Origin: Escherichia coli | GTDB lineage: Bacteria > Pseudomonadota > Gammaproteobacteria > Enterobacterales > Enterobacteriaceae | Length of the DNA: 64,000 bases | Assembly: GCF_017348835.2 (NCBI RefSeq) | Contig: NZ_CP071375.1 | Direction: 5' to 3' (one strand) | In this document: positions 21,590-21,886 of the stretch, piece by piece | Position numbering within the stretch: the stretch's first letter is position 1 | Layout: each line of letters starts with the position of its first letter | Translations under genes and position numbers: made by a program | The notes under the pieces: model-generated | The model's input: the letters and a program-made list of their open reading frames with translations, nothing else | The model's database searches: none | What the model was told of the DNA's origin: nothing

Positions 21590-21666
21590 CGCGGGGTGGA
21601 GCAGCCTGGTAGCTCGTCGGGCTCATAACCCGAAGGTCGTCGGTTCAAATCCGGCCCCCGCAACCA
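21590..21666 (+). tRNA. metZ: Initiator tRNA-fMet (CAU anticodon), copy 1
   Basis: 77-nt sequence CGCGGGGTGGAGCAGCCTGGTAGCTCGTCGGGCTCATAACCCGAAGGTCGTCGGTTCAAATCCGGCCCCCGCAACCA: the C1-A72 mismatch and three G-C pairs in the anticodon stem are hallmarks of tRNA-fMet; CCA is encoded. Confidence 0.95.
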
Positions 21667-21699
21667 ATTAAAATTTGATGAAGTAAAGCAGTACGGTGA

Positions 21700-21776
21700 C
21701 GCGGGGTGGAGCAGCTTGGTAGCTCGTCGGGCTCATAACCCGAAGGTCGTCGGTTCAAATCCGGCCCCCGCAACCA
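21700..21776 (+). tRNA. metW: Initiator tRNA-fMet, copy 2 (D-loop variant …GCAGCTTGG…)
   Basis: Identical to copy 1 except a C-to-T change in the D loop (21716); 110-bp repeat period. Confidence 0.9.
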
Positions 21777-21809
21777 ATCAAATTTGATGAAGTAAAAGCA
21801 GTACGGTGA

Positions 21810-21886
21810 CGCGGGGTGGAGCAGCCTGGTAGCTCGTCGGGCTCATAACCCGAAGGTCGTCGGTTCAAATCCGGCCCCCGCAACCA
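21810..21886 (+). tRNA. metV: Initiator tRNA-fMet, copy 3
   Basis: Identical to copy 1; third unit of the 110-bp tandem. Confidence 0.95.

Follow-up and report, generated by a model that had tools for sequence, protein, structure and literature searches.

Three initiator tRNA genes stand in tandem in the stretch of Escherichia coli DNA analysed here (the window, 64,000 nucleotides in full), and the middle gene differs from its two neighbours by a single base in the D-loop. The locus therefore raises the question of whether this base is real and, if it is, how it came about and what it does to the tRNA. An earlier reading of the DNA made without database searches (the sequence-only reading) had offered two answers, a strain-specific change or an artefact of assembling a tandem repeat.

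The metZWV array and its surroundings

According to ARAGORN the 64-kb window contains exactly three tRNA genes, each a tRNA-Met(CAT) gene on the plus strand, and the three 77-nt tRNA-fMet genes in tandem that the sequence-only reading described were recovered at 21590-21666, 21700-21776 and 21810-21886. Each of the three copies scored 61.4 bits (E=2.8e-12) against the Rfam tRNA model. A 901-bp array query matched 5,425 of 5,426 complete E. coli genomes, where the flanking genes are mltA and amiC, and the annotation of K-12 MG1655 names the three genes metZ, metW and metV. The features of the locus are as follows.

20284-21381, minus strand: mltA (murein transglycosylase A), upstream and divergent; coordinates taken from the identical PE164 record and K-12 synteny
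21549-21554, plus strand: -35-like hexamer TTGCAT, read from the sequence and assigned by its position relative to the -10
21571-21576, plus strand: -10 hexamer TATAGT, 16 bp after TTGCAT, identical in K-12
21577-21589, plus strand: GC-rich discriminator and short leader, GCGCTTCCACGGA, with GCGC following TATAGT
21590-21666, plus strand: metZ, a tRNA-fMet1 gene with the K-12 sequence; its Dcm site CCTGG unchanged at 21605-21609
21667-21699, plus strand: spacer 1, 33 nt, identical to the K-12 spacer
21700-21776, plus strand: metW, tRNA-fMet gene with C17 to U at 21716; CCTGG changed to CTTGG at 21715-21719
21777-21809, plus strand: spacer 2, 33 nt, identical to the K-12 spacer
21810-21886, plus strand: metV, a tRNA-fMet1 gene with the K-12 sequence; its Dcm site CCTGG unchanged at 21825-21829
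21893-21920, plus strand: predicted intrinsic terminator, a hairpin (21893-21912) with a T-run
21962-23215, minus strand: amiC, downstream and convergent; follows metV with no genomic island between

Judged by its gene content, the locus is the mltA-metZWV-amiC region of E. coli. Membership of the metZWV operon is likewise indicated by three tandem tRNA-fMet genes that lie between mltA and amiC with the spacers, promoter region and terminator of K-12. E. coli has been described as possessing four initiator genes, three of which are identical in metZWV (PMC3017606), and in the window this identity of three tRNA-fMet1 genes does not hold, as copy 2 differs at nucleotide 17. The difference is allelic within an orthologous operon and is no argument against orthology.

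Direct comparison agreed with the sequence-only reading in that copies 1 and 3 were identical to each other, and they were also identical to the K-12 tRNA-fMet1 gene, while the sole difference of copy 2 from both was C to T at gene nucleotide 17 (window position 21716). The K-12 metZ, metW and metV genes all carry C17, in agreement with the sequence-only reading, to which no such difference among the reference copies was known. A single tandem array was reported by TRF at 21588-21888 (period 110, 2.7 copies, 97% matches, score 570). Both spacers are 33 nt long and, as had been noticed, nearly identical, differing by one substitution and two offsetting 1-nt indels; the 110-bp period is therefore exact, but the units themselves are not the exact repeats that they had been taken for.

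Features of initiator tRNA were evident in the genes of the array. The CAU anticodon was found as CAT at position 35 of all three genes within a canonical cloverleaf (ARAGORN, Rfam and MFE structure), and the C1xA72 mismatch was reflected both in cmscan, which marked 1:72 as non-canonical, and in RNAfold, which left base 1 unpaired. The G-C triplet of the anticodon stem (29-41, 30-40, 31-39), three pairs whose role in initiator tRNA has been described (PMC3017606), was present in all copies as GGG at nucleotides 30-32 and CCC at nucleotides 40-42. A11:U24 was also present in the sequence of all three window genes. By these features the annotation of all three genes as initiator tRNAs stands.

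With regard to expression signals, the sequence-only reading had proposed a promoter composed of TTGCAT, TATAGT and a GC discriminator. All of these elements are present and the -10 fits the published promoter (PMC3017606), but a simple consensus scanner called no promoter sites in 21300-22100; TTGCAT goes uncalled because only three of its six positions match TTGACA. As the scan was empty, support for the promoter rests on identity with K-12 and on the report that metZWV expression is sharply lowered by a G to A change just upstream of the Pribnow box and by a T to C change inside it (PMC3017606). Assignment of TATAGT as the -10 element is consistent with these promoter-down mutations. The terminator that had been read after the array was also recovered as a predicted hairpin with a T-run. 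In this operon one promoter serves the three tandem tRNA-fMet genes, yielding a single transcript that ends at the intrinsic terminator and is processed, and the metZWV genes supply most of the initiator tRNA of the cell.

Two further SNPs were found in these signals. An A to T change at 21581, five bases after the -10 in the discriminator/leader, occurred among the sampled strains only in the window, PE164 and F2_81, K-12 and every other sampled strain having A at this position. The second, A to G at 21897 in the terminator stem, was private to the same three among the sampled strains and converts an A-U pair to G-U, with a predicted energy of -10.7 in comparison to -11.1 kcal/mol (0.4 weaker).

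The surroundings of the array yielded observations of their own. The tcdA-mltA spacer (20047-20283) is 237 bp long in the window and K-12 and 76 bp long in several strains (2013C-4974, C5, EC5654). A match to the ES036/CssrF sRNA on the minus strand (20120-20162; 46.5 bits, Rfam) lies inside the long form, so that this small-RNA-like element is a presence/absence polymorphism. Downstream of the array, amiC directly follows metV in the window and K-12 (21887-21961). In other strains an island is found straight after metV, namely a type VI secretion cluster in EC5654, H2 and 90-9280 and a PTS/phosphoglycerate-dehydrogenase cluster in AUSMDU00014361, MS 21-1 and 99RCEF, which identifies metV as a site of island integration, unoccupied in the source strain. 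The metV gene beside the type VI secretion island of EC5654 (5144-5220 of the extracted locus) carries C to A at gene nucleotide 29 (tRNA position 28), a change that would disrupt pair C28-G42 of the anticodon stem, and that copy may have been damaged as a result. In two chicken isolates, Z1323CEC0004 and Z1323CEC0002, the 901-bp mltA-metZWV-amiC match is split by about 700 bp annotated with an IS200C-family transposase.

Small RNA genes were also noted elsewhere in the window. The GcvB sRNA (16900-17105, plus strand) is full length at 199 bits, adjoins gcvA as in K-12 and is ordinary. Only one OmrA/B-family sRNA gene was found between aas and galR (50308-50389, minus strand; region 50150-50750), where K-12 has both omrA and omrB. 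The remaining gene is of the OmrB type, and the window lacks 202 bp in comparison to K-12, with breakpoints in terminator-end sequence common to both genes.

Distribution of the U17 allele in E. coli

Over 24 kb the window matched PE164, from a diarrhoeic pig in China, at 100% identity and was almost the same as F2_81, isolated from a rectal swab of a pig in Australia; the next-closest genomes were approximately 0.8% diverged. PE164 and F2_81 both possess C/T/C at position 17 across metZ/metW/metV, as in the window. The exact 77-nt U17 gene was found in 124 of 5,425 complete E. coli genomes (2.3%) from many hosts and countries, a number of genomes and not of events that is inflated by clonal oversampling. 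When exact flanks were demanded, U17 was located in metY (the unlinked initiator gene between argG and rimP-nusA) in 13 genomes, in metZ in 24, in metW in 22 and in metV in 35; these counts sum to 94, and the roughly 30 of the 124 carriers that fall outside them probably have variant flanks. The earlier suggestion of a strain-specific change was therefore too narrow, given the number of carriers and the presence of U17 in all four initiator slots.

The number of initiator genes itself differs between strains, with 1 to 8 initiator-tRNA gene matches per complete E. coli genome (median 4), two matches each in LH50-c and 118UI, and four matches in the collection located on plasmids. Copy number thus varies in a set of genes for which an effect of dosage on initiation fidelity has been reported.

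The 1,300 bp upstream of the array were compared among the window, 19 other carriers, K-12 and ET350, these flank haplotypes serving as a coarse stand-in for phylogeny. The 20 sampled carrier arrays formed eight flank clusters and 12 distinct combinations of slot and flank haplotype. Identical 1,300-bp flanks were associated with C/C/C in K-12, C/T/C in MB10 and PSS-04 and C/C/T in 7/2, and strain 203740, with two flank differences from this cluster, had T/C/C. A second flank cluster contained C5 (C/T/C), H2 (C/C/T) and A11 (T/C/C), and ET350, the nearest outgroup of the window, was C/C/C. Exactly one U17 was present in each of the 20 sampled arrays (the window and the 19 others). Two genomes, DLI.6n and PM7, possess U17 in two slots each, indicating that some conversion or double hits occur.

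By its recurrence in other genomes, the C to T change of copy 2 is a genuine germline polymorphism that is not private to the source strain, and the pattern of slots and flanks fits many recent independent changes in preference to one old allele inherited by descent. As the SNP is real it should not be 'corrected' in repeat polishing, a practical value that is admittedly small.

Position 17 in the gene and in the tRNA

The D-loop reads A14-G15-C-C-U-G18-G19, and the corresponding DNA contains CCTGG, a Dcm site. This site is intact in copies 1 and 3 and reads CTTGG in copy 2, where the inner C of CCWGG has been replaced by T; the changed base is therefore the C that Dcm would methylate in this site, a point that the sequence-only reading had missed. 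Dcm methylates the inner C of CCWGG, and deamination of the 5-methylcytosine yields CTWGG with a T:G mismatch that is normally repaired by Vsr, strains lacking vsr showing frequent C to T changes at Dcm sites (PMC2715241). In E. coli, CCWGG has also been described as a mutational hotspot, the methylated base being the one affected (PMC13250602). The dcm-vsr genes were present in 5,358 of 5,426 complete E. coli genomes (98.7%).

Recurrence of C17T was well above that of comparable neighbouring changes when each control allele was counted as an exact 77-nt match in the same 5,425 genomes. C16T, which affects the outer, unmethylated C at an unpaired and non-conserved position, was found in 6 genomes (of which two represent a single strain), U17a to C in 2 and G18 to A, the deamination product expected on the opposite strand, in 1, and U47 to C had no exact 77-nt match in the 5,425 genomes, although C47 is native in some other species. 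These alleles are at least 20-fold rarer than C17T with its 124 genomes. G18 is universally conserved in tRNAs, and the asymmetry between C17T and G18A is thus what would be predicted of a hotspot that acts on both strands and whose products are then sorted by selection. Transcription-linked deamination on the non-template strand could add to this asymmetry.

No significant general excess of transitions at the inner C of CCWGG was detected in 44 kb of aligned sequence from the window, K-12 and ET350 (5/290 in comparison to 283/22,315 at other C/G; odds ratio 1.37, p=0.42), an underpowered comparison made mostly of coding DNA under selection and VSP repair, which lends the Dcm explanation no independent support. 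The focal site itself lay outside this comparison, as MAFFT placed the K-12 array one repeat unit out of register.

In the mechanism that we propose, Dcm would methylate the inner C of CCTGG in an initiator gene, spontaneous deamination of the 5-methylcytosine would produce thymine directly and give CTTGG, and a T:G mismatch missed by very-short-patch (Vsr) repair would fix the C to T change. Hypermutability of the site, together with its location at an unpaired and non-conserved D-loop position, would let the same change arise repeatedly and independently in each of the four initiator genes and persist as a low-frequency neutral allele. We infer that Dcm methylation and deamination are the cause here, an explanation that is well motivated and supported specifically at this site. 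Additionally, CTWGG would tend to revert to CCWGG through the mutagenic side of Vsr (cited within PMC2715241), which may keep U17 young and rare.

At the level of the tRNA, C17 and U17 gave the same predicted cloverleaf with the same energy (-30.3 kcal/mol), and the Rfam score of copy 2 is unchanged because the base lies in a D-loop insert column. A structural effect of C17U is ruled out at the secondary-structure level by this identity of fold, energy and score. Other species were scanned using the 5' half of the U17 gene as query against one genome per species, which returned at least 120 stretches, and at least 39 genes in at least 31 loci of other species shared the complete 77-nt sequence of copy 2. 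Carriers of the copy-2 sequence among the matches listed included several Vibrio, Shewanella xiamenensis, Photorhabdus, Providencia vermicola and Xenorhabdus, together with Edwardsiella ictaluri, Dickeya oryzae, Enterobacter sp. Ag1, Rodentibacter and Parashewanella. Also among the matches listed, Vibrio breoganii had four tandem copies and a fifth gene, all with U17, and mixed C17/U17 arrays occurred in Photorhabdus, Xenorhabdus, Enterobacter sp. Ag1 and V. hannami. Identity over 77 nt with the initiator-type genes of other genera indicates that the U17 molecule is a normal initiator-type tRNA elsewhere.

Published work on this part of the D-loop, numbered C16-C17a-U17b in tRNA-fMet by Katoh et al., found that the same substitution had no effect on stimulation by EF-P, while deletion of the base abolished it, and EttA was reported to contact C17a and U17b of the P-site tRNA-fMet (PMC4890201). 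DusB is the enzyme responsible for D17 in tRNAs of E. coli (PMC5814906), and D20 is the only dihydrouridine reported in wild-type tRNA-fMet (PMC8887418). As wild-type tRNA-fMet already has a U beside position 17 that is not known to be modified, D20 being the sole dihydrouridine reported, an extra dihydrouridine at U17 is only a possibility; a preprint on V. cholerae tRNA modification contained nothing on D17 in initiator tRNA.

The U17 change most likely leaves tRNA function intact, and its occurrence in other genera and unchanged fold argue for neutrality in E. coli. Aminoacylation, formylation and P-site activity would be expected of the U17 tRNA as a functional initiator. Because initiator tRNA levels have been reported to track gene copy number (PMC3017606), approximately one quarter of the initiator pool of the source strain would be in the U17 form.

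Origin of the allele and comparison with known systems

The locus is the known metZWV operon bearing a recurrent polymorphism, and we consider it probable that this polymorphism reflects a Dcm hotspot and is neutral, with the U17 tRNA expected to be a fully functional initiator. The alternative closest to the sequence-only reading is that T at 21716 is a consensus error from a collapsed or mis-polished 110-bp tandem repeat. Near-identical tandem repeats are indeed a known source of polishing errors, and the 901-bp locus is matched at 100% by just two database genomes, but those two are separate deposits, one of a Chinese and one of an Australian isolate, and in both of them the allele occupies the same slot. 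The metW allele with exact flanks occurs in at least 22 genomes and the U17 gene somewhere in 124, a polishing error would not prefer one base at least 20-fold over its neighbours, and 13 genomes have this change in metY, an unlinked single-copy gene outside any repeat. An assembly artefact is rejected on the separately deposited assemblies with the same slot, the 124 carriers and the metY occurrences, and we regard it as barely credible. A real allele could also have had a single old origin and been moved by gene conversion among the four genes and by homologous recombination among strains. Conversion is favoured by the near-identity of the four genes and the tandem arrangement of three of them, E. 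coli recombines often, and two genomes (DLI.6n and PM7) have U17 in two slots. Conversion leaves the donor intact, however, so that double-U17 arrays should be common, yet none was found among the 20 sampled arrays. Identical 1,300-bp flanks bear U17 in differing slots or not at all, the order of the spacers is unchanged, and conversion leaves unexplained why C16, U17a and U47 are not polymorphic. As the main route, spread from a single origin is disfavoured by the lack of double-U17 arrays in the sample and by identical flanks with different slots, and we hold it to be unlikely; gene conversion among the four near-identical genes could explain some slot changes.

Two alternatives accept recurrence or persistence of the allele on other grounds than Dcm mutation of a neutral site. 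C17 may simply be an unconstrained, most tolerant position that accumulates background mutation with Dcm irrelevant, in keeping with the 44-kb comparison, where no excess of transitions was detectable at Dcm sites, and with the many species in which U at position 17 is native. This is argued against by C16, U17a and U47, which are likewise unpaired and non-conserved and yet had variants in 6, 2 and 0 genomes in comparison to 124, and by the nature of the change, which is the exact product of 5-methylcytosine deamination at the methylated base of CCWGG (PMC2715241, PMC13250602), and we judge background mutation to be quite unlikely. Alternatively, the U17 isoform may be functionally distinct, through contacts with E-site factors or an extra dihydrouridine, and be selected as a minor second initiator. 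Two initiator species per cell would resemble tRNA-fMet1 and tRNA-fMet2 of K-12, the mixed arrays of Photorhabdus, Xenorhabdus, Enterobacter sp. Ag1 and V. hannami show a similar mixture, EttA reportedly contacts base 17 and its neighbour in the P-site tRNA-fMet (PMC4890201), and DusB forms D17 in E. coli tRNAs (PMC5814906). Against selection, the allele is at low frequency (2.3%) and scattered on tip lineages, shows no sweep or fixation inside any sampled flank haplotype and never exceeds one copy per sampled array; folding is unchanged, the same substitution was neutral for EF-P (PMC4890201), and the adjacent U of wild-type tRNA-fMet does not belong to the positions known to carry a modification (PMC8887418). 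A selected isoform is in our estimation very improbable. Equally far-fetched is a more specific form of non-neutrality, in which U17 would provide a distinct minor initiator pool tuning initiation in energy limitation or cold, and the Dcm hotspot together with Vsr reversion would act as a reversible switch; it is raised because EttA reportedly contacts base 17 and the new U might become dihydrouridine.

A recurrent Dcm-hotspot polymorphism in metZWV, the reading preferred here, involves no departure from known biology, as the operon is already known and the U17 allele sits in public annotated genomes. The literature searched contained no account of an E. coli initiator tRNA altered at position 17, nor of metZWV variation in natural isolates. 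The locus offers a natural example of opposing forces, in which a methylation-driven hotspot lies inside a highly conserved RNA and its outcome is filtered by selection: C17 to U is tolerated (124 genomes), whereas G18 to A strikes a universally conserved base (1 genome). Counting the origins of U17 across the four genes could provide an estimate of the Dcm-site mutation rate in nature in comparison to neighbouring bases.

In comparison to the K-12 metZWV operon (b2814, b2815, b2816), the window shares position, gene order and the 110-bp period, and the -10 and -35 hexamers, spacers and terminator architecture are identical or nearly so. It differs in C17 to U of the middle gene and in the SNPs at 21581 (A to T) and 21897 (A to G). 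The motif, the inner C and the CTWGG product are those described for Dcm hotspots and Vsr (PMC2715241, PMC13250602). The known hotspots were laboratory reporter mutants, whereas this is a standing natural polymorphism in a tRNA gene at which methylation is deduced from the motif. The classical Dcm-site example is provided by the amber hotspots in lacI (Coulondre et al. 1978).

The pair of initiators in K-12, tRNA-fMet1 and tRNA-fMet2, likewise consists of two species separated by a single-base difference at an unpaired position; tRNA-fMet2 (metY) has A46 instead of m7G46 in the variable loop, while the U17 form differs at position 17 in the D-loop (PMC3017606). A46 separates E. coli K from B strains (PMC3017606), whereas U17 is sporadic and recurrent and occurs in any of the four genes. 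Lastly, the U17 initiator of Vibrio, Shewanella, Photorhabdus, Providencia, Xenorhabdus, Edwardsiella and Dickeya is identical to copy 2 at all 77 nt, and U17 is the only form seen in some of these other species (V. breoganii), while E. coli has it as a minority allele, in one gene out of four.
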